This document shows, piece after piece, positions 44,506 through 64,000 of a stretch of DNA of 64,000 nucleotides. The translations under genes and the position numbers were made by a program. Source of the stretch: a virus; IMG/VR virus record IMGVR_UViG_3300045921_000191, positions 46,656 through 110,655 of that record; one strand, given 5' to 3'. Under the pieces are notes generated by a model, which saw only the letters and a list, made by a program, of their open reading frames with translations, had not been told where the DNA came from and ran no database searches. Within the stretch, counting starts at the first letter, position 1; every line of letters starts with the position of its first letter.

Positions 44506-44506
44506 C

Positions 44507-46027: not shown

Positions 46028-46050
46028 TTGAATGTATCTCCTTTGACAAA

Positions 46051-47656: not shown

Positions 47657-47712
47657 ATTTCCTCAAAGCGTTCAACGCTAGATTACAGAATAGCACGGAA
47701 GAAGTTGATTTT

Positions 47713-47991
47713 TCACAGATCGGTGGTTTGGCGTAGCTTCTCTATGGCTTTCTTTTCGATAGTAGTCACGGCTGAAATCGACATGTGCAATAAGCTGGCG
47801 ATTTCTTGCAAAGTGTGTGGACGTAGGTTTGCTTTTAAATACGTGAAGAAGCAATTAAAATGCTCAGGCGAGTCTACCCACCATTCTTCAGGACTTTCAT
47901 TACAACGACAGCCATCTAAGTGCTGTACGACTTTTTCACTCATATTTTTAATTTGACAGAAATTCTTAATAAAGTCAATCAAATTAATCAT
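47713..47991 (-). CDS. Small protein with sigma70 region-4-like HTH
   Basis: HTLQEIASLLHMSISAVTTIEKKAIEKLR; the start may be MSEKV (47943). Confidence 0.7.
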   Translation of the reverse strand: MINLIDFIKNFCQIKNMSEKVVQHLDGCRCNESPEEWWVDSPEHFNCFFTYLKANLRPHTLQEIASLLHMSISAVTTIEKKAIEKLRQTTDL

Positions 47992-48283: not shown

Positions 48284-48312
48284 TTGACAAATCTAGTTAA
48301 GTTAGCTATAGT
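48284..48312 (+). promoter_or_regulatory. Sigma70 promoter (leaderless start at 48319)
   Basis: TTGACA-17-TATAGT, then 6 nt to the ATG. Confidence 0.8.
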
Positions 48313-48318: not shown

Positions 48319-48516
48319 ATGTTACTCGATTACCAAGACGAAATCGTAAAACTAGAAGATGAAAAATTTAAAGTTATTTTACGTTACGGAGAGTGTGAAT
48401 TCGTAGCGGAGCGTCTAGCTTCGCTGGATAAAAAATTAGAAAGGTTATACGAATGGCTGGCAACAGAGAAATCAAAGGACTCTTTGGATCGCCTAAACCG
48501 AAAGCTGATGTCATGA
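48319..48516 (+). CDS. Hypothetical protein
   Basis: 65 aa, ATGA overlap with ilvE. Confidence 0.6.
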   Translation: MLLDYQDEIVKLEDEKFKVILRYGECEFVAERLASLDKKLERLYEWLATEKSKDSLDRLNRKLMS

Positions 48517-49412
48517 GGGTTTGGTCGGACGGACATATCATTCATACCAAACGGCAAATCGACTCCTTGAATTTTGTGATGCATTACGGTTCTCCTGCGT
48601 GTTGGGAAGGAATTCGTTCATATCTACAAAGTAATGGCACCACTAAAATTTGGAAGCTAGAAGAACATGTCAAGCGTTTGTTCGATTCCGCGAAGATCCT
48701 AGGAATAGAAATTCCATTCACTCAATACGATATACAAGAAGCCTGCCGCCGCGTAGTGGAAGCAAACGGTAATGGCGATTTATATTTGCGTCCTATCGTT
48801 TACTCGACCCAGGACGCGGAATCAGTTCGTCAAGTAGATTATAAAATTGCAGTAGATATTTATGCATTCCCAATAGCTAAATTAGGCCGAGAAGAAGGTA
48901 TTACTGCTAAAATTGCTTCTATGGCCCGCGGCTATCCACAATTTCAAATGCAATGTAAGAATCCTGCAAATTACGCAATTTTAAATAATCTTAAGAATGA
49001 AATGGCAGGAGTGGACGAATTACTATTTTGTGACAATCAAGGATACGTAGTTGAGGCCACCGTGGCAAATCTTTTCATAGTTAGAGGTGATCAAGTGTTT
49101 ACCCCACCCAATGAAGGATCAATTCTTCCTGGTATAACTCGAAGAACTGTGGCCGAGATTTTGGGGGACAACGCTATGATGTTTTCAAAATATAATAAAC
49201 ACGTAAAAGTTATGGAAAAGCGCATAACACGCCCAGATCTTTATACCGCAGACGAAGTGTTTATGTGTGGTACTTTTGCTGAAATTGTCCCAATTATACA
49301 AATCGATGGAAGAATTATTGCTGACGGAAAGCCTGGATTTTATAGTAGAATGGTACTTAAGAGTTACCAAGACCTGGTTAGAGGTAGAAATGCCGATTAT
49401 AGAAAGTCTTGA
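48513..49412 (+). CDS. ilvE: Branched-chain amino acid aminotransferase (PLP fold-type IV)
   Basis: HYG..CWEGIRSY, H.KRL..SA, YLRP, catalytic K in CKNPANY, EAT.ANLF, ILPGITR, ADEVFMCGTFAEIVPI; likely start at the coupled ATG 48513. Confidence 0.92.
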   Translation: MRVWSDGHIIHTKRQIDSLNFVMHYGSPACWEGIRSYLQSNGTTKIWKLEEHVKRLFDSAKILGIEIPFTQYDIQEACRRVVEANGNGDLYLRPIVYSTQDAESVRQVDYKIAVDIYAFPIAKLGREEGITAKIASMARGYPQFQMQCKNPANYAILNNLKNEMAGVDELLFCDNQGYVVEATVANLFIVRGDQVFTPPNEGSILPGITRRTVAEILGDNAMMFSKYNKHVKVMEKRITRPDLYTADEVFMCGTFAEIVPIIQIDGRIIADGKPGFYSRMVLKSYQDLVRGRNADYRKS

Positions 49413-49617
49413 TTCGGTATTTATGATTCAACTTGGCGAAACGCTGTCGCACCCAGTCTTTGGAAAAATGAAAGTACTATTCATAGGCCCCATAGACGGT
49501 GAAGAGTGTGAAATGCTATGTCAGCTAGAAGAGTTTAATGGAACTTTAAAAGTATTTGACGCATTGACTCTTTCTAGGATAAAGTTTAGAGTTACAGGAC
49601 TTAGGATAGTTAAATGA
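49390..49617 (+). CDS. Hypothetical protein (HPVFG motif)
   Basis: GAGG RBS before ATG 49390. Confidence 0.55.
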   Translation: MPIIESLDSVFMIQLGETLSHPVFGKMKVLFIGPIDGEECEMLCQLEEFNGTLKVFDALTLSRIKFRVTGLRIVK

Positions 49618-49870
49618 AAATTTACATGATGCTCTTGCTCGATTGGATCAAGACGATTTTGATGGTCGAGTCTTGGCGCTGGGAATTTAAACGACCATTC
49701 ATAAGGGCAAGTGAAAACTTTAGTAAAGCCTTTTCACAATTATTCGTCTTGGACGATTCTGCTGGAGACGAACTCTGCGAAGCCCACTTGGATCTACGAT
49801 GATAAAAGGCCAGAGGATTTTATGCCTAAAGCGCAGTGGATTGGTCGAAAGGAATGGTTGAAAGGGTAGC

Positions 49871-50209
49871 ATGTCTAAAAACTTAAAAGAAAAACTAGCT
49901 TTACTTCTGAAAGATACCGAACGACTGGGAGATGTAGAGCGTCTTAACCGCTTAGAGCGCCTCGTTCAACAAGAGATAGACGATCTTAGCACCGAGCATC
50001 AACTCACTTTTAATGATCTAGCTTATATACGATCAAGGGCTATTTCGATCTATAATGATGAAAATATGGCAGCTTTTAACGTAGAAGGCCATAGCCATCG
50101 TTCTGAGCCAGAGAATTTACGGACCTACTCCTTTGTTTCGGCAACTATCGATTTTCTTCGAGGAAACGGTCTAACTAAGATTAAAGTTAGTATCAAAAAA
50201 AGAACTTGA
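49871..50209 (+). CDS. Hypothetical protein
   Basis: 112-aa ORF. Confidence 0.6.
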   Translation: MSKNLKEKLALLLKDTERLGDVERLNRLERLVQQEIDDLSTEHQLTFNDLAYIRSRAISIYNDENMAAFNVEGHSHRSEPENLRTYSFVSATIDFLRGNGLTKIKVSIKKRT

Positions 50210-50234
50210 CAAATTGAGTCAAGTATGTCATACT
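50206..50234 (+). promoter_or_regulatory. Sigma70 promoter upstream of the GGDEF gene
   Basis: TTGACA-17-(TGt)CATACT. Confidence 0.75.
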
Positions 50235-50275
50235 CCTTTATAGCTTGGAAAATTCCAAGAAGAAAGAAGGACTGA

Positions 50276-50995
50276 TTGAACCTCCCAAAAATAGAACCTA
50301 AAGAGAATGCAGAAAATGCGTTTTTAGAAGCCAGACTGGAAAATTCAGACTTTAACGTGGCTTTCATAGATGTAAATGGCTTAAAACTAGTAAACGACGT
50401 TTACGGTCACTCGCAGGGCGATTTACTTATCCACGCCTTAGCAATGGCCTTTTCACAACAACTACATCCAGACGAACGAGTCTTCCGATTTGGAGGAGAT
50501 GAATTCGTGGCCATTTTAAAACCCAGAACCAGACTACAACTCCTACAACTAGCTACAGTGTTGGAATCGGAAATGCAGAAATTTGCTGGTATAAAAGTTG
50601 CAACCCTCGCAGTAGGGTTTGTAAAAGAGTCTGAATACGCTAATTTCAATCAATTGATTGAGGGTGCGGACGCTTTAATGTATGAATCGAAGTTGTCAGG
50701 TCGTCCCATTTATCGTGAAGATAAAGTAACTCCAGACTCTATTAGAGCGCGAGATCCAAAAGCTTTGTTTAGAAGGGACTATTTCACCTTAATACTTAAA
50801 ACTGTGCTTCAGACTTATCCCGAATTGAAGAACGCAGAAAATCTAATGCGAGATGTTCGACACTTTTGGAGAGCTTACGATGGGGAGTATTTTGAATCTT
50901 TATCACCTTCACAATTAATAAATAAGTTAGTGGATTATTTACCTGTTGAAAGGAAGAAACAACATGGCGCTCAAAAAAGCAACCGAAGTAGCTGA
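50276..50995 (+). CDS. GGDEF-domain protein (putative diguanylate cyclase)
   Basis: FIDVNGLKLVNDVYGHSQGD, RFGGDEF, ADALMYESK. Confidence 0.9.
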   Translation: MNLPKIEPKENAENAFLEARLENSDFNVAFIDVNGLKLVNDVYGHSQGDLLIHALAMAFSQQLHPDERVFRFGGDEFVAILKPRTRLQLLQLATVLESEMQKFAGIKVATLAVGFVKESEYANFNQLIEGADALMYESKLSGRPIYREDKVTPDSIRARDPKALFRRDYFTLILKTVLQTYPELKNAENLMRDVRHFWRAYDGEYFESLSPSQLINKLVDYLPVERKKQHGAQKSNRSS

Positions 50996-51257
50996 GTCTG
51001 TTAAAACGAGACGAGAAGCCGCTGTCCACTCTCAGGTGGATGCTTTGATGGAGAATATAGAGAAGTCCGTCGAAGCTATGATGGAAAATACGTTTATTGA
51101 GGTAGATTTGCCTGAAGACACAATTAGCGGAGTATTGACTACTGTGGTAGAGCGTCTTCGAGAACTCGGGTATAAAACTTGCTTAGTTGAGCAAGTGAAT
51201 CGAGAATCTGAGATCATTGAACGTAGGCTTAGAGTCTCAGTAGCACACTTAGGATAA
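50964..51257 (+). CDS. Hypothetical protein (likely start MALKKA)
   Basis: AGGA RBS; LRELGY motif. Confidence 0.55.
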   Translation: MALKKATEVAESVKTRREAAVHSQVDALMENIEKSVEAMMENTFIEVDLPEDTISGVLTTVVERLRELGYKTCLVEQVNRESEIIERRLRVSVAHLG

Positions 51258-51260
51258 TGC

Positions 51261-51289
51261 TTGACAAAAACGATCTGATTTGTTAGTAT
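51261..51289 (+). promoter_or_regulatory. Sigma70 promoter of the recombinase operon
   Basis: TTGACA-17-(TGt)TAGTAT followed by AAGGAGGT RBS. Confidence 0.75.
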
Positions 51290-51305
51290 ATTAAAAGGAG
51301 GTAAC

Positions 51306-52145
51306 ATGAACTTAGTAAAAACTCAAAATACAACAAATGTATTGATTCAGTTTATTAATAGTTTTGTGTCGCCTCAAACTCGCAGGTCCTATTCCAACGA
51401 CTTGAAAGGGTTCTTTGAGTTTGTTGGACCCCTTAATTCTCCAGCAGATCTTCAACCAATTCACATTTCAGCCTTTCGAGATAAAATTGCAGCAGACGGA
51501 GCGTCTACAGCAACTATTAATAGAAAGATTTCTACAATCAAATCTCTAACTCGCTGGCTAATTCAAAACGGGCACCTAACCACAGACCCTACAATATCTG
51601 TAAAAGTTCCAAAGGTAGTTCATTCTCGTTCTACGGAAGCTTTTAAAGACGAAGAAGTAGCTAAGATTCTTGAAATCGTAGAAGATATTTCACACAAGAC
51701 ATTATTGATGACCCTGTTTTATACAGGCTTGCGCCGATCTGAGGTGGTAAAGTTAAGCCCAGCCAGCATTGTTCAGCAATCAGGTCTCAGCGGCTTTAAG
51801 GTTATAGGTAAGGGCGGCAAAGAACGCCTCGTAGCTATTCCAGAAGAACTTACTAAACAACTTAATATCTACTTTCAGCGCACGCGGATAGGTGACTTTT
51901 TGTTCGAGATGGACGAGTCCACTGTGTACAGGATCGTAAAACGTTATGCTGCGAAAGCTGGAGTGAAGGGCCGATTCGGAGCGCATTCTTGCAGAGCCAC
52001 TGTGATTTCAAATCTACTAGATAACCAAGTCCCGATCCGAGATGTAGCTAATTTTGCAGGTCATAGTTCAGTAAACACTACAACTCTTTACGATAAAAAG
52101 CGAAAAGGTCTAGCAGATAATGCTGGATATAAGATTAGGTACTAG
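51306..52145 (+). CDS. Tyrosine recombinase/integrase (XerC/D-like)
   Basis: SAM-like N-terminus; catalytic set TGLRRSE, GKGGK, HSCR, GHSS, TTLY. Confidence 0.93.
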   Translation: MNLVKTQNTTNVLIQFINSFVSPQTRRSYSNDLKGFFEFVGPLNSPADLQPIHISAFRDKIAADGASTATINRKISTIKSLTRWLIQNGHLTTDPTISVKVPKVVHSRSTEAFKDEEVAKILEIVEDISHKTLLMTLFYTGLRRSEVVKLSPASIVQQSGLSGFKVIGKGGKERLVAIPEELTKQLNIYFQRTRIGDFLFEMDESTVYRIVKRYAAKAGVKGRFGAHSCRATVISNLLDNQVPIRDVANFAGHSSVNTTTLYDKKRKGLADNAGYKIRY

Positions 52146-52146
52146 A

Positions 52147-52536
52147 ATGTTGATTACCAAGAAAACCCACTATGCTCTAATCGCCCTGATAGATGTATGT
52201 CATCACTCTGGAGATCCAGTTAGCACTGCAAAGATTGCGGAACGACAAAACCTACCTAAAGCATTTCTTGATCAAATTTTCAACGTGCTAAAAAAGTCTA
52301 AAATCGTCCAAGTACAAAGAGGCCCAGGCGGAGGATACACGCTGTCTGATAAACCTGAAAACATTAGAGTTGAAGATATAATCTCGGCAATTGGCGATTT
52401 TGAGATATCAGTAGAAGCTGTTGGAAGTTCCCCAGAAGCTAAACGAGTAAACGAATACGTAAGGCTTTTGAACGACAAGGTTTGGAATTATTTCTCTATC
52501 TCTTTGAGAGATTTAGCGGAAGGAAAATATGACTAA
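52147..52536 (+). CDS. Rrf2-family transcriptional regulator lacking the Fe-S cysteines
   Basis: YALIAL...IAERQNLPKAFLDQIF..LKK...RGPGGGYTL...I.V.DII.AI. Confidence 0.9.
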   Translation: MLITKKTHYALIALIDVCHHSGDPVSTAKIAERQNLPKAFLDQIFNVLKKSKIVQVQRGPGGGYTLSDKPENIRVEDIISAIGDFEISVEAVGSSPEAKRVNEYVRLLNDKVWNYFSISLRDLAEGKYD

Positions 52537-52729
52537 CGAAATTAAAACTAGTGAAGAATGGTCTAAAGAGCTTCTTAAAGGTTCTGTTATTTTAGACCCA
52601 GATGGATGGGATAGGCAGAATTATCAATTCTCTTGGTTTGAAGAAAAGATTACTGCTAAAGAGTTTTTACTCAGAGCGTCAAGTTCGACTGGAATGTGGA
52701 CGAAGGAATTCTTAGAAAGGCATTTGTAA
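52529..52729 (+). CDS. Hypothetical phage protein
   Basis: ILDPDGWDR...ITxxEF motif. Confidence 0.65.
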   Translation: MTNEIKTSEEWSKELLKGSVILDPDGWDRQNYQFSWFEEKITAKEFLLRASSSTGMWTKEFLERHL

Positions 52730-53043
52730 TGAAACATTATAGAGGCTTTTTGTCCATGGAATTCAAAAAAGGAATGGACCGTTTTGAGGTCTTTTTGAAC
52801 GGAAAAGAATACGATGATGGTATTAATCATCTGCGCCAAGGAGATTACCTAACTATTTACAATGTTCAAGATATTCCTAGCAGGAGTGATTTTCCTTTGA
52901 CTATTATATGGGAAGGCAAAATTACACAAGATACTTTTTTACAAAAACGTTATCAAATGAGTACCGTTCCAACAGGTATAGATTTTCATAAATATCTTAA
53001 CTTTGTTAGTGCAGGACATTTGGCCGTGTTATCGAGACCTTAA
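52729..53043 (+). CDS. Hypothetical protein (likely start MKHY)
   Basis: TAATG overlap. Confidence 0.55.
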   Translation: MKHYRGFLSMEFKKGMDRFEVFLNGKEYDDGINHLRQGDYLTIYNVQDIPSRSDFPLTIIWEGKITQDTFLQKRYQMSTVPTGIDFHKYLNFVSAGHLAVLSRP

Positions 53044-53249
53044 TGATTCCTCTAGAATTAAAACCAATTTTGATACTAATGATTGGAATGTTGACATTAA
53101 GCGTGATTTTAAGTATTGTATTCTCTAAGGCGACTAATACGCCTAGAAAGGACGACTGTCCTCCGCATGAATGGAAGTATGAGGTAAATCATCTCATTTG
53201 CCAAAAGTGCAGGATGCCAGCAGGGTATCCAAATGACCGAATGGATTAG
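53043..53249 (+). CDS. Small membrane protein with CPPH...CxxC Zn motif
   Basis: N-terminal TM; CPPHEW...ICQKC. Confidence 0.6.
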   Translation: MIPLELKPILILMIGMLTLSVILSIVFSKATNTPRKDDCPPHEWKYEVNHLICQKCRMPAGYPNDRMD

Positions 53250-53379
53250 CTTCTCGGCCTTTTTGCTTTCTTTTATTATTCAAGTAGATTTCTTTCTTTA
53301 TAAAAGAGAAGTTAAACAATTGTTTATAGCGTGGGGACTGACGGCGGTAGCTTGGTCTATTCACCTGTTTGGAGGATAA
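53233..53379 (+). CDS. 48-aa hydrophobic protein (not in ORF track)
   Basis: MTEWISFSAFLLSFIIQVDFFLYKREVKQLFIAWGLTAVAWSIHLFGG. Confidence 0.45.
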   Translation: MTEWISFSAFLLSFIIQVDFFLYKREVKQLFIAWGLTAVAWSIHLFGG

Positions 53380-53595
53380 ATGTCAAATTCAACCACTAAA
53401 ACCATTTCTATGTCGTATTCAGAATACGAGGCTGATTTGAGTAAGTCAAATCTTGAAGGATACAGCCAAGCTATGTCGATCGTTCGTCACGTTTTAAACG
53501 GTAAGACGGTTAAGCGCGGCGAAGGCACTACGGATGAGGAATGGGCAATTTGGGCTCAACTTATGGAAAAAGTTAAAAATGAAAAAGATACTTAA
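53380..53595 (+). CDS. Hypothetical protein
   Basis: GGAGG RBS. Confidence 0.55.
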   Translation: MSNSTTKTISMSYSEYEADLSKSNLEGYSQAMSIVRHVLNGKTVKRGEGTTDEEWAIWAQLMEKVKNEKDT

Positions 53596-53812
53596 TTTAG
53601 CCTGGTTGATTTTATCTAGAAGTGCTGTAATTGCGGCTTTTGTTATAACTTCAACTTTAGTAGGCTGGAACAAAGGACACGATACTGGATATGTTCATGC
53701 AATGGCTGATGTAACACTTGGTCAAGTAAACGCAGAACAATTTATGATTGATTATTGGATAGGAATTGGTCGTCTTGATCCGACCAAGTTTAACAGAAAG
53801 AAGATTAAGTGA
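53579..53812 (+). CDS. Small membrane protein (likely start MKKIL)
   Basis: N-terminal TM followed by a G..KG..TGY repeat. Confidence 0.5.
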   Translation: MKKILNLAWLILSRSAVIAAFVITSTLVGWNKGHDTGYVHAMADVTLGQVNAEQFMIDYWIGIGRLDPTKFNRKKIK

Positions 53813-54351
53813 AAATTCTTAGCCTGGATCTGGAAATGAATCAACCATCGGGGCGGATTATTCAAATCGGCGCTTGTGTAGGAGATACATTAACAGGGGA
53901 AATTTTAGAAACCTTGTCGGTTCTAGTTGACCCAGGCGAAGAGTTAACGGATTTCATTGTAAATCTTACTGGTATTTATCCAGCTCATATCTCAGAAAAA
54001 GGGGGCACTTTAATGGCCGCCTACGAGAAATTGAAAGAGCTTCATATCAAACATGCTTGTTTTATGAACCCCATCACTTGGGGTGGTGGGGATTCTTACG
54101 AATTAAAACAGCAACTAGTTAGAGACTATCCTGATTGGGATCAAAAATTATGGACTTTTGGCCGACGATGGATAGATGTTAAAACTCTCTGGCACACTCA
54201 GCAAATTGCCATAGAAGGTAAACTGCAAGCTGGCCTTGCCAAAGCTTTAGCTAAGTCTGGCATGCAATTTAAAGGGAGAAGGCATAACGCAAAGGACGAC
54301 GCAATAAACACGTTCTACATGTTCCAATACATGCTAAGAAGATTCAGGTGA
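53809..54351 (+). CDS. DEDDh 3'-5' exonuclease
   Basis: LDLEM, IIQIGA, TWGGGD, HNAKDDA. Confidence 0.9.
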   Translation: MKILSLDLEMNQPSGRIIQIGACVGDTLTGEILETLSVLVDPGEELTDFIVNLTGIYPAHISEKGGTLMAAYEKLKELHIKHACFMNPITWGGGDSYELKQQLVRDYPDWDQKLWTFGRRWIDVKTLWHTQQIAIEGKLQAGLAKALAKSGMQFKGRRHNAKDDAINTFYMFQYMLRRFR

Positions 54352-54354
54352 GTC

Positions 54355-54546
54355 TTGCAAAATCCGAAGAAAATATTTTGTTTCAAATTTTACAGACTTC
54401 AACAAGTTGAGGTAGAAGTGTATGCCGAAGACGAGGATCGCGCTAAACAGCGGTTTTTAGAAAGAAAATGGGCGAACAAACCTTTTGAAGTTTACGCTGA
54501 AGAGGAAGAGATTATAGATATTTTAGAAGTGGAGTATTGGAATTAG
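54355..54546 (+). CDS. Hypothetical acidic protein
   Basis: VEVYAEDEDRA motif. Confidence 0.5.
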   Translation: MQNPKKIFCFKFYRLQQVEVEVYAEDEDRAKQRFLERKWANKPFEVYAEEEEIIDILEVEYWN

Positions 54547-54547
54547 T

Positions 54548-54868
54548 ATGGTAAAAGAATTACCAGAAGCTGTTTTACAAACTTATGCGTTTTGGAGAGA
54601 GACCAGAACTCTAGAAGAATGCTTGACAGAAACTTTAAATGGTGATAAAATAGAAGGGTTTGATCTCGTGTACGATGACTCTTTAGTAGAAGAGGACCTC
54701 GAGACCGAGAAACTGAATTATGCTATGACTTCTATAGAAAAGCTTCACATTTGGACAAAAACCAGAGTTTTGATATGGGAACCCGAGTGGAGATTTTTTC
54801 GCGTATTTCCCAGAAATCCAGATAAAAATAATAAGTTTAAAATAAAGAGGGACGACGGATGGACTTGA
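54548..54868 (+). CDS. Hypothetical phage protein
   Basis: IWTKTRV...PRNP motif. Confidence 0.6.
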   Translation: MVKELPEAVLQTYAFWRETRTLEECLTETLNGDKIEGFDLVYDDSLVEEDLETEKLNYAMTSIEKLHIWTKTRVLIWEPEWRFFRVFPRNPDKNNKFKIKRDDGWT

Positions 54869-54971
54869 AAAAGATATTAAACAGCGGACAAGTTCCTAAA
54901 GAAATAGCAAAAGCTGCTATTTTACATGAACATAATATGACTAAGTGCATCACTAAAAGTGAACTTAAAAA

Positions 54972-55128
54972 GTGAAAGAAAATAGACTTAAATTTAACGG
55001 ATGACGCCGCCAAATTAGTTAGACAGTGGTCCAAGAAACTTCGAGTCTCTGAGGAGAGTATAATTTATGCAGCACCCCTTCAATACATTAAAGAAACCCT
55101 TGGTGGATCTGAAGAAGTTGGATATTGA
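54972..55128 (+). pseudogene. Ribbon-helix-helix-like small ORF with out-of-frame start
   Basis: Frame KKIDLNLTDDAAKLVRQWSKKLRVSEESIIYAA... lacks a start; the coupled GTG at 54972 is 1 nt out of frame. Confidence 0.45.
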
Positions 55129-55243
55129 AACTGTTGAGCAATTCATTGCTCGCGGCGGAAAAGTACAGAAAATAAACAGCAAACCTCCTGCCAAACCTAT
55201 ACCATTTAACTTTATGTTTTCTTGGCGAAAACGTCGTAAATAA
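55103..55243 (+). CDS. 46-aa SutA-like putative RNA polymerase-binding protein (not in ORF track)
   Basis: ETVEQFIARGGKVQKI...PPAKP resembles the SutA EEFLSRGGKVQEI...PPKKP segment. Confidence 0.6.
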   Translation: MDLKKLDIETVEQFIARGGKVQKINSKPPAKPIPFNFMFSWRKRRK

Positions 55244-55246
55244 AGC

Positions 55247-55275
55247 TTGACAATTCTAGTAAACTATGTCATGAT
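55247..55275 (+). promoter_or_regulatory. Sigma70 promoter (leaderless start at 55282)
   Basis: TTGACA-17-(TGt)CATGAT, then 6 nt to the ATG. Confidence 0.75.
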
Positions 55276-55281
55276 AGGAGC

Positions 55282-55857
55282 ATGGGTAAGATTTTAATAT
55301 ACGAAAAGTATAAACACTTGCTTCTTCCTGCAACTAGGGAAGTTCTTGAAAAATCCTTCGATACTGATAAAGTAGAGCATCGCATAACCCGTGCCACTGT
55401 TAAAAACAGCTCTGTTATGCCGTTTATTGTTCAAGTTAGAGATCGCTTCGAACAAGCCGAAGCTATTCACCGAATTTGCAAAGAACTAGATCATATGGTC
55501 GAAGTCAATGCTTTGGCTGGAGTTTATAAAAACGAGGCATTATTTTATCAGCTTAATCCTCCTGTCACTGAGCAAACTCCAGGTTACGATCTTTGGCGAT
55601 CAAGTTCATACAATCAACATGCCGATGGTAGATTTGTAGGAGCCATGCTGCATGTCTGGGGAGGTAGCTTTTACGAACTACGAGCATTCTACAGTAGTGT
55701 ATTCTGCACTTCTGAAGGTGAGATAGCTCCCTTTCTTCCAAAAATAGCTCAGCCGAAAAAATGCGTTTGTGGGATTGAGGTATTGTACGGTGATAAGTCT
55801 ATTAAACAGATGCACGCGGATTGGTGCCCCTTGAGTGTTTACGAAAGAGGTAGTTGA
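55282..55857 (+). CDS. Hypothetical protein with C-terminal CxCG...H..WCP Zn motif
   Basis: KKCVCG...HADWCP. Confidence 0.6.
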   Translation: MGKILIYEKYKHLLLPATREVLEKSFDTDKVEHRITRATVKNSSVMPFIVQVRDRFEQAEAIHRICKELDHMVEVNALAGVYKNEALFYQLNPPVTEQTPGYDLWRSSSYNQHADGRFVGAMLHVWGGSFYELRAFYSSVFCTSEGEIAPFLPKIAQPKKCVCGIEVLYGDKSIKQMHADWCPLSVYERGS

Positions 55858-56454: not shown

Positions 56455-56915
56455 AACGTAAAGCAGTCATCTTTGATTTAGACGGTACGCTTTGTAATTA
56501 CAATCACCGTCGTCCATTAATCACTGGATCCAAGAAGGATTGGGATGCATTCCTTTCAGCTTGCGACAAAGACACGCCCAATCGTTGGGCTGTCAAATTG
56601 GTTCAAATGTACTCTTATCCTCCCGCTGGCTATCGAATAATGTTTGTGACTGGCAGAGGCAGGGAATACGAAGAGAAGACTCGCGCCTGGATTTATAGTT
56701 ACCTTGGATGGGGCCGACTTCAGAATCGATATGCTTTATACATGCGTCCTGAAAAAGATTCTCGCCCCGACGACGAAATTAAAAAGGAAATCTATTTACG
56801 AGATATTGAGCCGTTTTTTGACGTTGAAGTGGTAATAGATGATCGAACTAGAGAGGTAAAGATGTGGCGTAGTCTTGGGTTAACTTGCCTACAATGTGAT
56901 GATGGGAATTTTTAA
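56451..56915 (+). CDS. HAD-family phosphatase (T4 PseT/PNKP 3'-phosphatase-like)
   Basis: FDLDGTL, VTGR, LYMRP..D.RPD..IK, IDDR, WRSLGL.C. Confidence 0.9.
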   Translation: MKRKAVIFDLDGTLCNYNHRRPLITGSKKDWDAFLSACDKDTPNRWAVKLVQMYSYPPAGYRIMFVTGRGREYEEKTRAWIYSYLGWGRLQNRYALYMRPEKDSRPDDEIKKEIYLRDIEPFFDVEVVIDDRTREVKMWRSLGLTCLQCDDGNF

Positions 56916-57406
56916 TGAGAACGATCTTTAAATGTGAGTTTGGATCTGCCATTTATGGTACTTCTACGCCCACTTCAGACAAAAGATTACAAATCGATCT
57001 TTGTTCCTGACCCCTTGGATATAGTGCTTCAACGCGTTCCAAGAAATATCACTAAGAATACTAAAACTGATATTCATGCTAAAAATACCTCTGATGATAT
57101 CGACGATCAGGCTTTATCACTTCAGGAATACCTGCGCCTGCTCACTCAAGGTCAAACTCCAATGCTTGATATGTTGTTTTGTCCAGAAGAGAAAGTCCTC
57201 ATTACATCTCCCGAATGGGAGCGTGTAAAATCTTACCGTCACTCTTTTCTTCATAAAGGCACGTCGGCATTCGTAGGTCATGTTCGTCAGCAAGCCGCCA
57301 AACAAATCAGCATTTACCACCTACAGCATCAGCTTTTACTTCGGATAGTTTGGTCACTGAAATCTATTCCAATGAACTTAAGAAATGGCTTGACATATCT
57401 CATTAA
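56915..57406 (+). pseudogene. Pol-beta-like nucleotidyltransferase (T4 NrdC.11-like), frameshifted and internally deleted
   Basis: MRTIFKCEFGSAIYGTSTPTSDK | DYKSIFVP: an extra A at 56981-56984 splits the GS..YG...SDxD motif; sequence breaks after QQAAK. Confidence 0.8.
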
Positions 57407-57418
57407 ATTAGGTATTTT
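57390..57418 (+). promoter_or_regulatory. Sigma70-like promoter (near-leaderless, ATG 57426)
   Basis: TTGACA-17-TATTTT, then 7 nt to the ATG; no RBS. Confidence 0.6.
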
Positions 57419-57425
57419 ATATTAA

Positions 57426-57764
57426 ATGCTTATTAAACACTCAAAACCCTTTAAAAGACCCAATTACAGCGCTATGTATGTTGTGGAAGTTAATGAACAA
57501 CTAGGCTTTGTTGAAGTTGTGCCTTGGATGACTGAGATAGGGTTTGAGTATGATGACACCTTAGCTTCATTTAAGGGCCGAGTAGAGTGCATAGCTCAAA
57601 GAAAGGTCGTATTGCAATACGATCCTGAATTGGACGAACGGCTAGCAAAATTTTTAGTGGATAATTTTTTTGAAAAAGACGAAACTACTAGGGCTGACAT
57701 TTATGGCCCCGATAGTTGGTATTTGATTGACGGAAAAGACAAACAACCTTTCAAAGAAAAGTAA
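57426..57764 (+). CDS. Hypothetical protein
   Basis: 112-aa ORF. Confidence 0.55.
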   Translation: MLIKHSKPFKRPNYSAMYVVEVNEQLGFVEVVPWMTEIGFEYDDTLASFKGRVECIAQRKVVLQYDPELDERLAKFLVDNFFEKDETTRADIYGPDSWYLIDGKDKQPFKEK

Positions 57765-57770
57765 GAGTAA

Positions 57771-58418
57771 ATGAAATATCTAGCATTTGATACTGAAACA
57801 GGAGGACTTGATCCTAAAGAGTCATCGTTATTGACTGCCTACTTTGCAATCTTAGATGACAATCTTAATACTATAGATTCCTTGAGTTTGAAAGTGAAAC
57901 CTGATGATGGATTGTTTAAAGCTAATCCAGAAGCTTTGGCTATAAACAAGATCAACTTGGAAGAGCACGATGCGGCAGCCGTGACTTATCAAGAGGCTGG
58001 AGCACAACTTGCTAAGCTAATTGCAAAGCATTCATCTAAATATGATAAGCTAACTCCAATCGCTCACAATATTGAGTTCGATCTTAGCTTCGTTTATGAA
58101 CACTTGCTCAGCAAGAAACTTTGGGAAAACGGAGTATCTTATCGTAAGATTGATACTGCTCAAATTGCTAACTTTTTGAAGTTGGCAGGCTTGCTCGATA
58201 ACAAACAGCAAGTAAATCTTGGAGGCCTTGCAGAGACGTTGGGCGTTCAGTTCTTTGGAGATGGTGCTCACTCTGCTCAGGCGGATGTTGAAGTGATGAT
58301 CGGGGTTCTTGGTCAATTCAAAAAGCTAGTAAATAACGCTCCGAAATTTACGACTCCTGCCCCAATCGTTAACACTGACGGAGTTGCTTCTTCACGATTT
58401 AGAAAGAGGACTATATGA
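57771..58418 (+). CDS. DEDDh exonuclease (DnaQ/epsilon-like)
   Basis: FDTETGGLDP, AHNIEFDLSF, IDT, AHSAQADV. Confidence 0.9.
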   Translation: MKYLAFDTETGGLDPKESSLLTAYFAILDDNLNTIDSLSLKVKPDDGLFKANPEALAINKINLEEHDAAAVTYQEAGAQLAKLIAKHSSKYDKLTPIAHNIEFDLSFVYEHLLSKKLWENGVSYRKIDTAQIANFLKLAGLLDNKQQVNLGGLAETLGVQFFGDGAHSAQADVEVMIGVLGQFKKLVNNAPKFTTPAPIVNTDGVASSRFRKRTI

Positions 58419-58651
58419 ACAAGGGTGAATTAGTGGCAATTGCTCCAAGCGGAGCTTTAGTAGTCTTAATCCCAATTTACACCAGAAATATAGCAGAAGA
58501 ACTGTGCGTAAAGGAAGGTTACAGTTTTCATTTAATCACGACCGAAGAATCTCCTGTGGGTTATATTTTAGATTGGGAAGAGACAGGCGATCAGTGTCGT
58601 ATTTTTGGTAAAGACATTCTTGATAGCTTGGAAGTGTTGGGCGAACTGTGA
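58415..58651 (+). CDS. Hypothetical protein
   Basis: GAGG RBS, ATGA overlap. Confidence 0.55.
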   Translation: MNKGELVAIAPSGALVVLIPIYTRNIAEELCVKEGYSFHLITTEESPVGYILDWEETGDQCRIFGKDILDSLEVLGEL

Positions 58652-58826
58652 AAAACTCATTTACGAAAAAACGGCTATCCTGGGGCACCTTAAAATCTTG
58701 CTCAAAATAAGATCTCAGTGGGATTTTGGAGTAGCGTGGGATATGACTGAGGAAGTATTAATAAAAACTTTGAAGAGATTTCTTCAAGTTAATTGGATCG
58801 TTTGCGATCCTGATTTGGAGGAATAA
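58648..58826 (+). pseudogene. Small ORF with out-of-frame coupled GTG start
   Basis: GTG at 58648 followed by an A5 run is 1 nt off the KLIYEKTAIL... frame. Confidence 0.4.
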
Positions 58827-59035
58827 TGTGTTTACTTTGCTGGGAAATTCAAAAAGAGAGAATGAACATTAGGGAAGTGGCTCGCGCATTTCGTGAGATG
58901 GTAATTCCTAAAGAACACGAAGACGAGGTTTATTACCACATCGAACGGTCGTATGGAGTAGAGGAGATAGCAAACGAGCTATTTCAAATAGACGCAGAAG
59001 AGGAAAAAAGTAAAAGTGAATCAAGAAATCGCTGA
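58826..59035 (+). CDS. Hypothetical phage protein
   Basis: MCLLC...EM....EH motif, GGAGG RBS. Confidence 0.6.
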   Translation: MCLLCWEIQKERMNIREVARAFREMVIPKEHEDEVYYHIERSYGVEEIANELFQIDAEEEKSKSESRNR

Positions 59036-59234
59036 ATTTGTTAAGTTCTTACGTTTGGGGTCCGTATGCCATTCGTGGCGTAGAATTGCCGAATTGGTGG
59101 TAGAGGAATTCCCTGGATATGCAGAATCTCAAGGTTGGCCTAGTGACGCAGCCGCTCATGGAAATCAATTGTTCGGTAAAGATCTCTGTCACGACGCCGC
59201 CGAGTTTTTGGACATAGAGGAACTCAAAGAATAA
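59016..59234 (+). CDS. Hypothetical phage protein
   Basis: SWRRIA...GNQLFG..LC..AA. Confidence 0.55.
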   Translation: MNQEIAEFVKFLRLGSVCHSWRRIAELVVEEFPGYAESQGWPSDAAAHGNQLFGKDLCHDAAEFLDIEELKE

Positions 59235-59255
59235 TAACTAGACCAAGGATTACAA

Positions 59256-59411
59256 ATGGGCAAATTTGATACAAAGACTGGTTTCAAGAAAATGTTAAAA
59301 GAAGCTGATTCTATTGATAAAATGCCTAAAAAGTCTGTACGCAAATGGAAACGCGGAGAAAAGCAAAAAGTTAAGAAGCAGATTATAAAGGATCAAAATG
59401 ATCAAGGCTGA
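59256..59411 (+). CDS. 51-aa basic protein (not in ORF track)
   Basis: MGKFDTKTGFKKMLK...; AAGGA RBS. Confidence 0.45.
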   Translation: MGKFDTKTGFKKMLKEADSIDKMPKKSVRKWKRGEKQKVKKQIIKDQNDQG

Positions 59412-60279
59412 AGTAGTCGCTGATTCTATCAGTACGGCAGGAGTAAGACTTACTACATTTGTTCTAAAATATCCTCGATTTATTCATTCAGAACTAATGA
59501 CTCATCGAGTATTTTCTAGGAATGCATCCTCGTCCCGTGCTATCCCAGTTAAGAAATCAATTCAACTGGTTCAGTCGGAACCAGTGATTCCGCTTGCATT
59601 TACTCGCAATCAAAAAGGAATGCAAGGCGGAGAAGCTCTTTCTGGATCTGAACATGACGAAGCAGTCAGCCTTTGGCTTAAAGGAAGAGATTACGCAGTA
59701 GAAATTGCACAAGGTCTTTCTGATCTCGAAGTACACAAACAATACGCAAACAGGGTTCTTGAGCCTTACTCTTGGATTCAAGTAGTTCTCACTTCAACGG
59801 ACTTTTCTAACTGGTATGCTTTAAGATACCACGGACAAGCTCAACCTGAAATTCATGTGCTTGCAAAACTTATGTTTGAAGCTCAAGAGGCCAGCACTCC
59901 AAAGTTTATTAATCCTGGAGAATGGCATCTCCCATTTATCGACCCTAAAACCAGTACGGATACTCTTTCCTCACTTGGAACCATTAAAGATACTTACGAA
60001 TGGAGTATGGCTTTGGTAAAACGATCCGCTGCTCGTTGCGCCAGAGTATCATACTTAAATCATGATGGCAGTTCTACTACTTACGAACAAGATCTTCAAC
60101 TTCATGATCGTCTTCTAAAATCAGCCCCTCTTCATGCTTCTCCTGCCGAACATCAAGCAATGGCAGTAGGAGATTCTAACGTTCGTTCTGGTAACTTTAG
60201 AGGTTGGATTCAATATCGTAAGACTATTCCAAATGAGAATATTTCACATTTTAATCCTCCAATACTGGAGGATCTATGA
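59398..60279 (+). CDS. thyX: Flavin-dependent thymidylate synthase
   Basis: PRFIHSELMTHRVFSRNASSSRAIP, VHKQYANR, AQPEI, ARCARVSY, HASPAEH. Confidence 0.9.
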   Translation: MIKAEVVADSISTAGVRLTTFVLKYPRFIHSELMTHRVFSRNASSSRAIPVKKSIQLVQSEPVIPLAFTRNQKGMQGGEALSGSEHDEAVSLWLKGRDYAVEIAQGLSDLEVHKQYANRVLEPYSWIQVVLTSTDFSNWYALRYHGQAQPEIHVLAKLMFEAQEASTPKFINPGEWHLPFIDPKTSTDTLSSLGTIKDTYEWSMALVKRSAARCARVSYLNHDGSSTTYEQDLQLHDRLLKSAPLHASPAEHQAMAVGDSNVRSGNFRGWIQYRKTIPNENISHFNPPILEDL

Positions 60280-61034
60280 AATGGTTAATCCTTCTATTAC
60301 TGGCAGCAAATCCATCTTACGCTAACGCTCCTACTGTTTTTGCTAAAAGCTTAATTAGAGTGGCTGTTATCGACACTGGAAAACCTATAATCACTGATGC
60401 TCCAGTTTGTCCCACAGGACATAAGGATTTTTCTGGATTAGGAATTCGAGATACACACGGTCATTCTGGACATATTGCTGACGTGTTAGATCAACACGTA
60501 AAACAAAAATTACGTACAAGCCTTTTTAACGCTAATCGTGATAACTCCGAATTTAATAAAGATATTGGATACTGCATTGTCTTCTTCAAATACTATAACG
60601 AACTAGCTACTGGAACTGAAAATTTAATAGCTTCAAATCAAGCTTTGGAAGAAGCGACTAGGCAAAAAGTAGATGTAATAGTTTATGCGGGCGGCGGTGC
60701 GGCTTATGATCACAGAGAAGCAAGAGCGGTTAAAGCAGCTCTGAATGCTGGAATTAAAATGATAGCCGCCGCTGGTAACGAGGGGATGGATACTTCTATT
60801 CATCCCTACTTTCCAGCTCAATACGATTCAAGAATACAAATGGTAGGAAATCTCACTTCTAGCGGAAGCAGAGGTCCGTTATCAAACTTCGGTCCTCGGG
60901 TTAGCTTTTGGGAAGTAGGAACTTCAGTTTTAGCTAAAGTCAACGGAAAACCGATGTACATGACTGGGACTTCCCAAGCTACAGCAGTTCGAGCTGGAAA
61001 AGTGGTGAGAGAGCTTATTAGGAGTCGAAAATGA
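60276..61034 (+). CDS. Secreted subtilisin-like S8 protease
   Basis: Signal peptide; triad VIDTG / HGH..H / GTSQA; AAAGN oxyanion Asn. Confidence 0.88.
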   Translation: MKWLILLLLAANPSYANAPTVFAKSLIRVAVIDTGKPIITDAPVCPTGHKDFSGLGIRDTHGHSGHIADVLDQHVKQKLRTSLFNANRDNSEFNKDIGYCIVFFKYYNELATGTENLIASNQALEEATRQKVDVIVYAGGGAAYDHREARAVKAALNAGIKMIAAAGNEGMDTSIHPYFPAQYDSRIQMVGNLTSSGSRGPLSNFGPRVSFWEVGTSVLAKVNGKPMYMTGTSQATAVRAGKVVRELIRSRK

Positions 61035-61059
61035 TGCAGTTTTCAAGTAAGGAGGAAAA

Positions 61060-61494
61060 ATGAGTGGAGAATCAACGCCCACTACCCCAGAGGATCAACT
61101 TGATTATATCAACATGGAGTTGCAAAAACTAGGCCTTGCTCCTGTGGCTGTTCCTGGAGAGACTACGGATTACCAACAAGCTTTGGAATCAGCTCTTATC
61201 ACCGCAGGGCAAACCTTAGCTCTATATGACCAACTTTTAGACACTGTGAAAAACAATGCGGAGCTGGTAAAAGCAAAGATCGGAAGTCTCGATCTTAAAG
61301 GAAAAATCCTTCTTATTCAAAACTCAGGAATGACTATGAGCGAAGTGGACTATCTTCGAAAAAATCTAGAAGACGCTAAGCCTCTTGGAATCATGCTAAT
61401 GCCAGATGATGCCATAATTACTGCTCTTGAGATCGATGACATGATTCTTCGTTTACAAGGACTGTCTTTGAAGAAAAAAGGCCAAGTTCAGTGA
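61060..61494 (+). CDS. Hypothetical protein
   Basis: TAAGGAGG RBS. Confidence 0.6.
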   Translation: MSGESTPTTPEDQLDYINMELQKLGLAPVAVPGETTDYQQALESALITAGQTLALYDQLLDTVKNNAELVKAKIGSLDLKGKILLIQNSGMTMSEVDYLRKNLEDAKPLGIMLMPDDAIITALEIDDMILRLQGLSLKKKGQVQ

Positions 61495-61528
61495 TTTTTG
61501 TCCACGCCAAAATTTTTTAAGATTATAC

Positions 61529-61557
61529 TTGACACAGTGCATAAGATCTGTTAGGCT
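61529..61557 (+). promoter_or_regulatory. Sigma70 promoter (leaderless start at 61564)
   Basis: TTGACA-17-(TGt)TAGGCT, then 6 nt to the ATG. Confidence 0.75.
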
Positions 61558-61563
61558 ATAAAC

Positions 61564-61727
61564 ATGACCATTATAGAAGTCCTCGAAGAGCATGAGAAGC
61601 GGATTAAAAAGCTTACGATGACGCCTCAATAAAATATTATGGAAATTTCGCACTAACCAATGCTCAACTTGCAAATATGCCAAAAGAGGATGAACGACAT
61701 GAGTTATCTAGGAAGTTGATAAGATGA
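61564..61727 (+). pseudogene. Frameshifted small gene
   Basis: MTIIEVLEEHEKRIKK | YDDASIKYYGNF...KLIR*; the second frame ends in an ATGA overlap with 61724; 1 nt missing near 61606-61614. Confidence 0.55.
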
Positions 61728-62266
61728 AACGCGCTATCTTCGGTTCCCTTCTAATCCATTTGGCTATCCTGGCATTATTCTTGAATGCAGGCAGCGGAAT
61801 CGATGGTAACTGTGAAGGACCTAACTGCTCAGACAAAAAATCAGAAAACGCAGGCACTGGTAATTTTGATGACGACAAAAGAGAAATCGTAGATAAACCT
61901 GTCCAAATCTCTCCTGTAAGTCCAGAAGTCTTGGAAGCTATCAAAAAGCAAAACGAACAAATTAAACTAGAAGAAGAGCAAAAGAAAGAACAAGCTCGTC
62001 TTGAAAAAGAAGCCAAAGAATGTCCTTTGTGGTTTGGTGGAATCGGAGTCACTTTCAACTCTCTTGAGGGTCGAGTCCTGACAGTTCACCGAGGTTATCC
62101 CGCTGAAGCAGCAGGAATACAGCCTGGAGACTATCTTACATCTGATACAGAAATCAAAGGTCAAGTAGGAACTCCTGTAGTAGTTCAAGTTACCAGAGGA
62201 ACCTTAGTTTATACTCTCACTCTTATTCGCGCAAAGATTTGCGTAGTACATGATGGTCCCAAATGA
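61724..62266 (+). CDS. Membrane-anchored PDZ-domain protein (TolA/TonB-like anchor)
   Basis: SLLIHLAIL anchor; FGGIGV...V..GYPAEAAGIQPGD...G..GTPV PDZ motifs. Confidence 0.8.
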   Translation: MKRAIFGSLLIHLAILALFLNAGSGIDGNCEGPNCSDKKSENAGTGNFDDDKREIVDKPVQISPVSPEVLEAIKKQNEQIKLEEEQKKEQARLEKEAKECPLWFGGIGVTFNSLEGRVLTVHRGYPAEAAGIQPGDYLTSDTEIKGQVGTPVVVQVTRGTLVYTLTLIRAKICVVHDGPK

Positions 62267-62532
62267 AAACTATAATACTCGCTTTTTTATTCTCAACATT
62301 AGCATTGGCGGAAGTCAACATTAAAGATGTTCAGCAATCCTCATTTTACACAGGTTGCATCGACGGCTGGATCGTAACTTATGAAGCTGGCTGGTACGTT
62401 AGACCAAAAGGAATGACAGGTCATGACGTTTTTAAAAAATTAAAAAAGGATTGTGCTAAAAAAGCTGACCTTTACCGAAAAGAGCAAGAAGCTTTTGAAA
62501 TTACTCCTTCGAAAGGAGAACTGCCGCGATGA
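62263..62532 (+). CDS. Small exported protein
   Basis: Signal peptide MKTIILAFLFSTLALA. Confidence 0.6.
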   Translation: MKTIILAFLFSTLALAEVNIKDVQQSSFYTGCIDGWIVTYEAGWYVRPKGMTGHDVFKKLKKDCAKKADLYRKEQEAFEITPSKGELPR

Positions 62533-62876
62533 GTAACGATCATTTGGTTAAAGAGCTTTTGAGAGATACCATGCTTTACCGAGTTACTTCGGATGGAATA
62601 CTTGAAACCAGGAAGACCAGACAAGGCAAAATCGGGACGGAATGGCGAGTAGCAGGATACGACAATCATCACAAAGGAAAAACCTATCGTTTCGTGAAGT
62701 TCAAAGGCAAGCACCTCAAAATCCACCGAATCGTTTATCAGCACTTCAAAGGCGATCTTCAGTCACATCTAGTTATCAACCATTTGGATGGCAATGGCTT
62801 AAACAACCATCCTGACAACTTGCAACAAACAACTGTTGAATACAATGCGGTTTATCGAACGCAGGAGGCAGCGTGA
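62529..62876 (+). CDS. HNH endonuclease
   Basis: IHRIVY..F.G......INHLDGNGLNNHPDNL. Confidence 0.85.
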   Translation: MSNDHLVKELLRDTMLYRVTSDGILETRKTRQGKIGTEWRVAGYDNHHKGKTYRFVKFKGKHLKIHRIVYQHFKGDLQSHLVINHLDGNGLNNHPDNLQQTTVEYNAVYRTQEAA

Positions 62877-63313
62877 AAATCGGTGATCGCTTTTTCGTTT
62901 CCAATTATTTTTCTAAGCAAGACGTAGGTGATTTAGTTGAACTTGTGGATCAGAATACAGGTTCCAGAGACGAGCCCTACGGAGTATACGGAGCCAAGTC
63001 TTTAGACGAGTACTACACCACTAAAAAGATTCATTATTTTAGCGACCACGGTTCTATGGACGTAATGGGCGCTAGAATTTACAAAACACAACAAGAAGTT
63101 GACGCCTATCTTAAATATGCCCAAGACTAGGAAGAACGAAAAGCCAAAGCTATGGACATTTTCCCTGAAATTACCCGCCTAACGGTTCAAAACGAAAAAT
63201 TTCGTGCAGCACTTGAACTCATCGCGTCACCCAAACGTGCGGACGGAACATACAATCGAAGCCGAGAAGCTTGTGAACAACTAGCCAAGGAGACTCTCAA
63301 TGAGGAACGCTGA
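62873..63313 (+). pseudogene. Hypothetical gene split by an in-frame TAG (63128-63130)
   Basis: ...YLKYAQD*EERKAKAMDIFPEITRLTVQNEKFRAALELIA... continues in frame to TGA 63313. Confidence 0.55.
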
Positions 63314-63548
63314 CCGATTGATTATCATGTGCGAGAACGATTGCCCATCTGAAGCTATCGTCCTCATTACTGACGACCATAATCAACACCTCAGATCTCA
63401 CTGGAAGTATTTCTGGAGATCTGGTATGTTGCGTCATATCTTTCTTCATTTCAAACTCCGCAAAGAACAACGGTCCAAAGGTATTCCTGTAATCCAATTC
63501 TCCAAAGTTATCAAACACGTATTGAGGAATGATCGCCGTGACCACTAA
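63300..63548 (+). CDS. Hypothetical protein
   Basis: ORF track; start uncertain. Confidence 0.45.
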   Translation: MRNADRLIIMCENDCPSEAIVLITDDHNQHLRSHWKYFWRSGMLRHIFLHFKLRKEQRSKGIPVIQFSKVIKHVLRNDRRDH

Positions 63549-63855
63549 AAGAAAGTACACTAGAAAGAAGAAATCGAAGGTGGTAGCTGCACCTGAAGTC
63601 AAGTTGGTGAAACCGCCTCTCTTTGGATTGCGGGTCCGCAAAGAAGTGGCTGGACAGTTGGTCGAGGGCGTGATAGTACATTATATCAAGGGGTGGGAAC
63701 AAATGACCGAAGAACAGGTCAAAACGTTTGCCTTCCTCGGCCCTAATGATAAAAACTACAAATCAATTCGAGGTCCTGCTGGACTTGACCGAGTGGTGGT
63801 GGCCAAGGAAAATGCCGAAGGCCTTTGGATTCTACCACTTTGGAGGTTAGTGTGA
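63529..63855 (+). CDS. Hypothetical protein
   Basis: GAGG RBS, 108 aa. Confidence 0.55.
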   Translation: MIAVTTKRKYTRKKKSKVVAAPEVKLVKPPLFGLRVRKEVAGQLVEGVIVHYIKGWEQMTEEQVKTFAFLGPNDKNYKSIRGPAGLDRVVVAKENAEGLWILPLWRLV

Positions 63856-64000
63856 ACAACTTTACTAAACTTAAAGAACTCCTTACCCAAGCAACTCAGG
63901 TAGTTAGCCAGTACGCTCACGCTCTTTGAGCCGAGAATGCCGAGCTTAGTCAAGCGTTACTGACTGCGTTAGATACTTGAAAGAAGGGAAGGCTAGATTT
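63852..64000 (+). pseudogene. Gene interrupted by in-frame TGA codons (runs off the window)
   Basis: GGAGG RBS and GTGA overlap: MNNFTKLKELLTQATQVVSQYAHAL*AENAELSQALLTALDT*KKGRLD. Confidence 0.55.

Follow-up and report, generated by a model that had tools for sequence, protein, structure and literature searches.

Does the uneven damage seen in a phage genome, with broken small genes in one arm and whole particle genes in the other, mark the virus as a prophage on its way to domestication, or is it what ordinary gene turnover leaves behind? The question is raised by a 64,000-nucleotide stretch (hereafter, the window), which comprises bases 46,656-110,655, the final 64 kb, of the 110,655-bp virus record IMGVR_UViG_3300045921_000191. 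In the window, a module of virion genes on the minus strand (1..47991) is followed by a plus-strand arm (48,319-63,855) of about 38-40 small, tightly packed genes, whose median open reading frame (ORF) is 107 aa as against 228 aa in the virion arm. The initial annotation, made from the letters alone, had listed a series of lesions in the plus arm and had proposed that selection is relaxed on early genes in a long-resident prophage or phage-plasmid, possibly being domesticated into something like a gene transfer agent (GTA) or a tailocin; ordinary turnover in an active phage was named as the alternative. From our analysis, that alternative is favored by the patchy distribution of the genes concerned and by the variable content of the arm. 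With a probability of about 0.75, the lesions reflect the everyday loss and replacement of early genes that an active phage can spare, and not domestication.

Broken genes in the plus-strand arm

A small gene of 87-89 codons (54859..55128, plus strand) is broken by an in-frame TGA at 54973-54975, as judged by homology. From the ATG at 54859, which has a GAGG ribosome-binding site, 38 codons are read before this TGA, and the same frame then remains open for 50 further codons without a start codon. The hexamer coding score of this start-less stretch is 31.3, a value that about 0.1% of out-of-frame segments in long genes reach (null P~0.001). A HMMER search of 1.84 billion representatives found P0108, an intact protein of 87 aa that aligns end to end with residues 1-89 (E 2.6e-28, 62-64% identity), and tblastn placed residues 1-87 of P0108 on 54859-55125 (E 3.6e-32). 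A second homologue of 88 aa likewise aligned across the TGA. P0108 reads KKWKK where the phage has KK-TGA-KK, and this Trp at the position of the stop points to a TGG>TGA nonsense change. A lesion had been noted near 54975 as a start codon off by one; it is real but was misdescribed, being a nonsense TGA at the Trp of the homologue, with no displaced start.

The second broken gene encodes a nucleotidyltransferase (NTase) of the NrdC.11/RlaP type, of which a 5' fragment remains (56915..57302, plus strand). Its ATG at 56915 overlaps the preceding stop codon (TAATG), and its product, MRTIFKCEFGSAIYGTSTPTSDK, runs 23 residues to GS..YGTSTPTSD. The continuation, DYKSIFVP..., sits in the +1 frame, so that the frame switches between SDK and DYK, inside the SDxD motif. 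The suspicion of an extra A in the run 56981-56984, within this catalytic motif, was confirmed: when one A of the run is skipped, the match to Pfam RlaP (PF10127) improves from E 0.0043 (residues 42-128) to 1.3e-10 (residues 2-134), PHROG 388 'nucleotidyltransferase' is matched at 1.4e-37 over positions 36-158 of 351, and both alignments are continuous over the repaired break. Homologues of the NTase occur in about 1,680 phage records, mostly T4-like. As predicted for a frameshift, two reading frames are needed to align the intact genes of Aeromonas phage Ah1 (317 aa, annotated as NrdC.11) and Erythrobacter phage vB_EliS-L02 (325 aa). Identity to the Ah1 and vB_EliS-L02 proteins is 36-41% over the N-terminal 131 residues, GS..YG...SDxD included, whereas here the motif is split by the 1-nt insertion and the C-terminal ~190 residues are gone; this copy is a pseudogene.

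Convincing homology of the NTase stops at residue ~131 of ~320 (...RQQAAK, nt ~57302). The tail that follows (57303..57425, plus strand) is non-homologous, and the last 41 codons of the NTase frame have a non-coding score of -14. This tail holds a TTGACA-N17-TATTTT promoter (57390-57418), 7 nt 5' of the ATG of the next gene at 57426. By tblastn, the C-terminal half of the NTase is found nowhere else in the genome, and a variant on a separate 2.2-kb JGI contig, different in one residue, has the same aberrant tail. Taken together, the gene is frameshifted and has lost about 60% at its 3' end; the GS...SDxD motif is interrupted, and the product has neither the ~320 aa nor the C-terminal domain of a functional NTase. 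An internal deletion had been suggested near 57300; of this, the loss of the 3' part is confirmed. No counterpart of the NTase was found in 138 related loci, and the contigs of the relatives compared stop short of the equivalent of window positions 54-64 kb. Directly 5' of the broken gene, and joined to it by the TAATG overlap, lies a PNKP-type phosphatase without a kinase domain (56451-56915); the two may be a partly dismantled RNA-repair module.

The third broken gene is a 3' remnant of a macro-domain gene (58653..58826, plus strand) that has no usable start and has lost about 105 N-terminal codons, which is nearly the whole Macro domain. The overlapping frame 58572-58826 offers only TTG starts without a Shine-Dalgarno (SD) sequence. 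The last 33 aa of the remnant share 48% identity with residues 132-164 of a Pfam Macro protein, 166 aa long, of the related locus L003 (pairwise E 7e-11), and the aligned part extends over the last 33 to ~57 residues. Pfam found no Macro domain (PF01661) in the remnant, as a functional macro protein would have, and there is no resemblance to a Macro domain upstream of it. Instead, the remnant adjoins an intact ORFan of 78 aa (58415..58651, plus strand) with a good ribosome-binding site and no macro-domain similarity. We read 58653-58826 as a replacement scar, the part left over after an unrelated ORF took the place of the 5' two-thirds of the macro gene. The reading frames do break near 58651, as had been noticed; what lies there is a C-terminal macro remnant and not an indel in an A-run.

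A fourth case is a leaderless small gene (61564..61727, plus strand), which has probably lost one nucleotide in the A5 run 61606-61610. The loss of 1 nt near 61606 had been proposed before and is probable from internal evidence, namely the frames, the promoter, and the coding score; searches found no homologue. With the promoter at 61529, a leaderless ATG falls at 61564, from which only 22 codons are read before a stop. The -1 frame then offers 39 further codons with a coding score of 17 (P about 0.015), and its end overlaps the PDZ gene as ATGA; the only ATG in this frame would leave 16 codons, so it provides no usable start. Adding one A in 61606-61610 yields a 54-codon gene.

Both this site and the TGA at 54973 could conceivably be instances of programmed recoding, in which tRNA-Trp would decode UGA by wobble, the ribosome would slip by -1 at T-AAA-AAG (61605-61611), and a functional product would be made at a low level. 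The TGA coincides with a Trp position and has an A after it, and the two frames of the 61564 gene are joined precisely by a -1 shift at AAA-AAG; slippage of tRNA-Lys on A-AAG is well known from dnaX. However, the homologue P0108 has a plain Trp codon product with no stop, and the heptamer is non-canonical, with T instead of A before AAA. The NTase, with 60% gone, is beyond rescue by any recoding, and mixed types of decay in one arm are explained more simply by mutation. We consider recoding very improbable.

Three further positions, in two places, had been listed as in-frame stops. At 62873..63313 (plus strand), two same-frame ORFs of 85 aa and 53 aa, both strongly coding, are separated by TAG 63128-63130. 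We found no support for a lesion here: the 53-aa ORF has its own ATG at 63152, 21 nt past the TAG, other assemblies likewise call two separate ORFs, and a query reading through 62873-63313 returned no homologue that spans the TAG. At 63852..63980 (plus strand), a 25-codon ORF with a GGAGG site begins at a GTG (63852), in a GTGA overlap with the upstream stop, and ends at TGA 63927, with a second in-frame TGA at 63978. Its coding score is 26; the score is weak after TGA 63927 and negative after TGA 63978. It may be either a true mini-ORF or a 5' stump.

Asymmetry between the arms and the question of sequencing error

In the virion arm, the sole defect seen in 48 kb is a frameshifted homing endonuclease of the GIY-YIG/NUMOD type (21861..22478, minus strand). 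Its ATG overlaps the preceding stop codon as ATGA and lies 1 nt off the frame of the 205-codon body, and the first in-frame start would delete the catalytic domain; in this, we agree with the initial annotation, which had seen the only clear minus-arm frameshift in a homing endonuclease. The endonuclease is free-standing and sited between tail genes. Frameshift decay is the expected end of a selfish homing gene after fixation, and the endonuclease is probably such a dead selfish gene. The degeneration cycle of homing endonucleases thus resembles this single virion-arm defect, unlike the remaining lesions, which hit ordinary accessory genes.

In numbers, three homology-verified broken genes (four with 61606) in 15.5 kb of the plus arm stand against one in the 48 kb of the virion arm, or none when the selfish endonuclease is left out. 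The excess reaches nominal significance when counted per kb (binomial p 0.014-0.048) but not when counted per gene (Fisher p 0.07-0.31), since the genes of the plus arm are half the size. The asymmetry that had been claimed between the arms therefore stands nominally by length and not by gene number. The two lesions of the NTase are not independent in selective terms. A six-frame sliding hexamer plot was too noisy at gene boundaries for genome-wide detection of lesions, and a scan for coding pieces without a start was applied to the coding strand only, as antisense shadows dominate it.

The lesions could also be artefacts of sequencing or assembly, such as homopolymer indels, consensus errors, or chimeric joins. 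Two of the sites lie in A4/A5 runs, and the genome is a metagenome assembly that was judged from contigs alone. Nevertheless, exact copies of proteins of the arm are recorded on JGI/IMG contigs (longest 110,676 bp) and on Logan contigs (longest 110,558 bp), and the ORFs bounded by the NTase frameshift, by the 54973 TGA, and by the 58651 stop occur letter for letter in these JGI and Logan assemblies, which come from different assemblers. The variant strain contig has the same NTase truncation. The nonsense codon is a substitution, and the NTase and macro genes each lack more than 100 codons, which is not what a homopolymer slip produces; the three-times-longer virion arm is free of such errors. 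For these reasons, sequencing error is an unlikely cause, as the initial annotation had argued from the longer arm, and we regard artefacts of any of these kinds as highly improbable.

Core genes and the closure of the genome

The virion module (1..47991, minus strand) is intact, of the contractile-tail type, and covered by ORFs over 96.5% of its length; its products comprise the head protease, the major capsid protein, a full-length tail sheath, the baseplate wedge, tail proteins, and a peptidase M15-like lysin. Outside the window, whole ORFs were found for rIIA, rIIB, an ATP-dependent ligase, the portal, and the large terminase (TerL), as well as for the subunits of ribonucleotide reductase (RNR), a UvsX-like recombinase, an SbcD-like exonuclease, a family-A DNA polymerase (PolA), a primase-helicase, GroEL, and a two-part helicase. 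Further core genes encode ClpP, FKBP, a TerS-like protein, a transglycosylase, and a dNMP kinase. PolA, primase-helicase, UvsX, RNR, ligase, portal, TerL, and the TerS-like protein are full-length with strong PHROG/Pfam matches. The terminase, portal, and replication genes that the initial annotation had suggested checking are thus whole. In the plus arm itself, the class IV aminotransferase, the GGDEF protein, the Rrf2 regulator, two DEDD exonucleases, a stand-alone PNKP-type phosphatase, ThyX, a secreted S8 protease, and an HNH endonuclease have full Pfam domains or are evidently complete; the products recognized there also include an Xer-type tyrosine recombinase and a PDZ protein. Two of the enzymes, and just these two, were inspected by eye: ThyX has its usual N-terminal motif and the S8 protease its Asp-His-Ser triad. 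Pfam and PHROG scans gave no matches for the 87-aa gene, the 78-aa ORF, or the small ORFs.

The contig ends are those of a closed genome. The first 127 bp of the record are identical to its last 127 bp, and this end comparison gives a circle of 110,528 bp. Host genes or flanks, which a domesticated prophage should have, are absent from both record ends, and the record is classed as a virus; the contig ends, whose inspection the initial annotation had proposed, thus give a circular closure with no host DNA.

These data bear directly on the reading as a long-resident prophage or phage-plasmid under domestication (GTA- or tailocin-like), in which host selection would keep the particle genes as the early genes decay. 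That lesions cluster in the non-structural arm is in its favor, as are the conservation of the Xer-like recombinase and the circular assembly, which is compatible with a plasmid form. Intact structural genes beside some broken non-structural ones are also what decaying or domesticated prophages, GTAs, and tailocins have. Unlike these, the phage is not integrated, its genes for replication, packaging, and lysis timing are intact, and it is present as a full-length circle in several assemblies. Domesticated elements typically lose replication and packaging genes first; here, the genes for replication, recombination, nucleotide metabolism, packaging, and rII are all intact and host flanks are absent. 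Among ~70 ORFs scanned, there were no partition (ParA/ParB-type), plasmid Rep, or repressor genes. The Xer-type tyrosine recombinase (51306-52145) is conserved in the related loci L003, L004, L136, and L137 (37-58% identity), but a dif-like 28-mer beside the arm (48211-48238) is absent from all four of these loci, even allowing up to 7 mismatches. The absence of host flanks and the intact replication, packaging, and rII genes speak against domestication, which we consider quite improbable.

Relatives and the variable content of the arm

The major capsid protein is 32-35% identical to the capsids of SPO1-type Bacillus phages, and the capsid is distantly related to those of SPO1-type (Herelleviridae-like) phages; it is 72-76% identical to proteins on ~50-kb uncultivated contigs from IMG/VR and from bins of metagenome-assembled genomes (MAGs). 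Homologues of the exonuclease were found on many metagenomic contigs of 110-120 kb, and the closest relative is a 119-kb contig that carries the exonuclease P0019 (80% identical). From the similarity of the capsid and the exonuclease homologues on 110-120 kb contigs, the phage is therefore a member of an uncultivated family of ~110-kb myophages. The only near-identical sequence is a 4.2-kb IMG/VR fragment from another sample (L001), which is 99.5% identical and spans 560 bp of the plus arm. A megablast of the plus arm against 50,697 phage records gave zero matches, and a search for related loci with the PNKP phosphatase as query found nothing. A query with the exonuclease alignment returned 125 loci from IMG/VR and JGI metagenomes, all with at most 61% identity and with almost no common synteny except that of the exonuclease and the S8 protease.

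Three contigs whose capsid genes are 74-75% identical (L136, L137, and L138) were binned as 'Candidatus Saccharibacteria' and 'Proteobacteria' MAGs. These three capsid relatives in species-representative genomes are MAG contigs of 2.7-52 kb binned to unrelated phyla; they are therefore most likely phage contigs swept into the bins and unreliable as host evidence. As probably mis-binned contigs, they would also weigh against domestication.

The content of the arm varies strongly beside a conserved core. Of the arm genes, only a few recur in relatives whose capsids are 72-76% identical, among them those for the aminotransferase and the recombinase (40-64% identity), and these have different neighborhoods. 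The interval from the recombinase to the exonuclease is ~5.6 kb here, whereas in L136 the exonuclease follows directly after the recombinase. The genes are small and early, in short units with promoters of their own: nine TTGACA-N17 promoters lie on the plus strand within 16 kb (48284..48312, and with starts at 48029, 50206, 51261, 53091, 54623, 55247, 57390, and 61529). Downstream, the plus arm runs on over the assembly junction to rIIA/rIIB.

Probable turnover of genes that an active phage can spare

In the reading we prefer, that of ordinary turnover, the plus arm is a plastic early and accessory region made of short transcription units, each behind a TTGACA-N17 promoter. Dispensable genes are being lost singly and in different ways. 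The 87-codon gene suffered a TGG>TGA nonsense change; the NTase went by a 1-nt insertion and the removal of its 3' ~60%, with a truncation just 5' of a promoter-plus-gene module; the 5' two-thirds of the macro gene were swapped for an unrelated ORF; and the leaderless small gene was probably broken by a 1-nt deletion. Lesions in essential genes are lethal and purged by selection, which by itself yields the asymmetry between the arms; since such lesions are purged, an intact core with a scarred periphery is uninformative on domestication. The part of the earlier claim that survives is that selection is relaxed on several dispensable plus-strand genes and not on the particle genes, in line with the verified lesions and the whole virion genes. 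The lesions are confined to genes with a patchy distribution among relatives, which fits turnover as well. From rIIA/rIIB and the full set of genes for replication and nucleotide metabolism, we infer a virulent lifestyle, and the conserved tyrosine recombinase leaves some doubt. The functions of the broken genes, an RNA-repair-type NTase and an ADP-ribose-binding macro domain, would be counter-defence or auxiliary functions that are unneeded on the current host.

Several points weigh against this reading. Four or five defects in ~40 genes are a fairly high number for a phage selected for compactness, and a literature search gave no direct figure for published pseudogene densities in virulent phages. 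All relatives keep the Xer-type tyrosine recombinase, which makes a temperate or plasmid-like phase conceivable. The JGI and Logan assemblies, though independent, may have their libraries in common. The first 46 kb of the genome were checked for whole long ORFs only, so that the homology screen for small lesions is limited to the remainder. There is, furthermore, a small chance that a recent change of host or lifestyle, for instance a carrier or plasmid-like phase by way of the Xer recombinase, has relaxed selection on a set of genes for counter-defence or RNA repair (the NTase beside the PNKP phosphatase, the macro gene, and the 87-aa gene), or that UGA at the Trp codon and AAA-AAG are deliberate switches for low-level recoding in early genes that are leaderless.

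A known counterpart to such turnover is provided by the hyperplastic regions of T4-type and other large virulent phages; for the T4-type phages, two published accounts describe variable genes in such regions, with insertion, deletion, and replacement beside promoter cassettes (PMC4122927, PMC2839356). The arm is similar in its small early genes, mostly of no known function, beside a conserved core, in its content, which varies by insertion, deletion, and replacement, and in its units with an early promoter of their own; one truncation here ends before a promoter-plus-gene unit. Unlike in the T4-type phages, the lineage here is another one, with an SPO1-like capsid at 32-35% identity, no repeated promoter-stem-loop cassette is demonstrated, and there are several leaderless units and the conserved Xer-type recombinase.

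For annotation, five short ORFs of the arm should be flagged as pseudogenes, as fragments of broken genes, and not as hypothetical proteins. For method, intact essential genes beside broken accessory genes are to be expected in any viable phage, and an argument for domestication needs host flanks or the loss of replication or packaging genes. For the biology of the phage, the discarded functions, an RNA-repair-type nucleotidyltransferase and a macro domain, may hint at defences that it no longer meets.

Other features of the window

A reassignment of TGA was considered as a candidate and rejected. TGA is a routine terminator that ends 24 of the 82 ORFs of at least 150 aa, with one verified in-frame TGA only, and the code is standard. 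No tRNAs and no Rfam families were found in the genome.

From ~63930-64000 of the window onward to positions 1-2095 of the genome (L131), a stretch of ~2.1 kb that spans the assembly junction is ORF-poor and has 36.8% GC. All six of its frames have negative coding scores, and it has no Rfam or tRNA match and no similarity to the relatives. An origin, genome ends, or eroded genes are candidates for this stretch.

At four of the nine promoters, an ATG without an SD sequence lies 6-7 nt past the -10 hexamer (ATGs 48319, 55282, 57426, and 61564). The four spans of promoter plus ATG are 48284-48321, 55247-55284, 57390-57428, and 61529-61566 on the plus strand (chance P about 2e-4), and the arrangement suggests leaderless early mRNAs.

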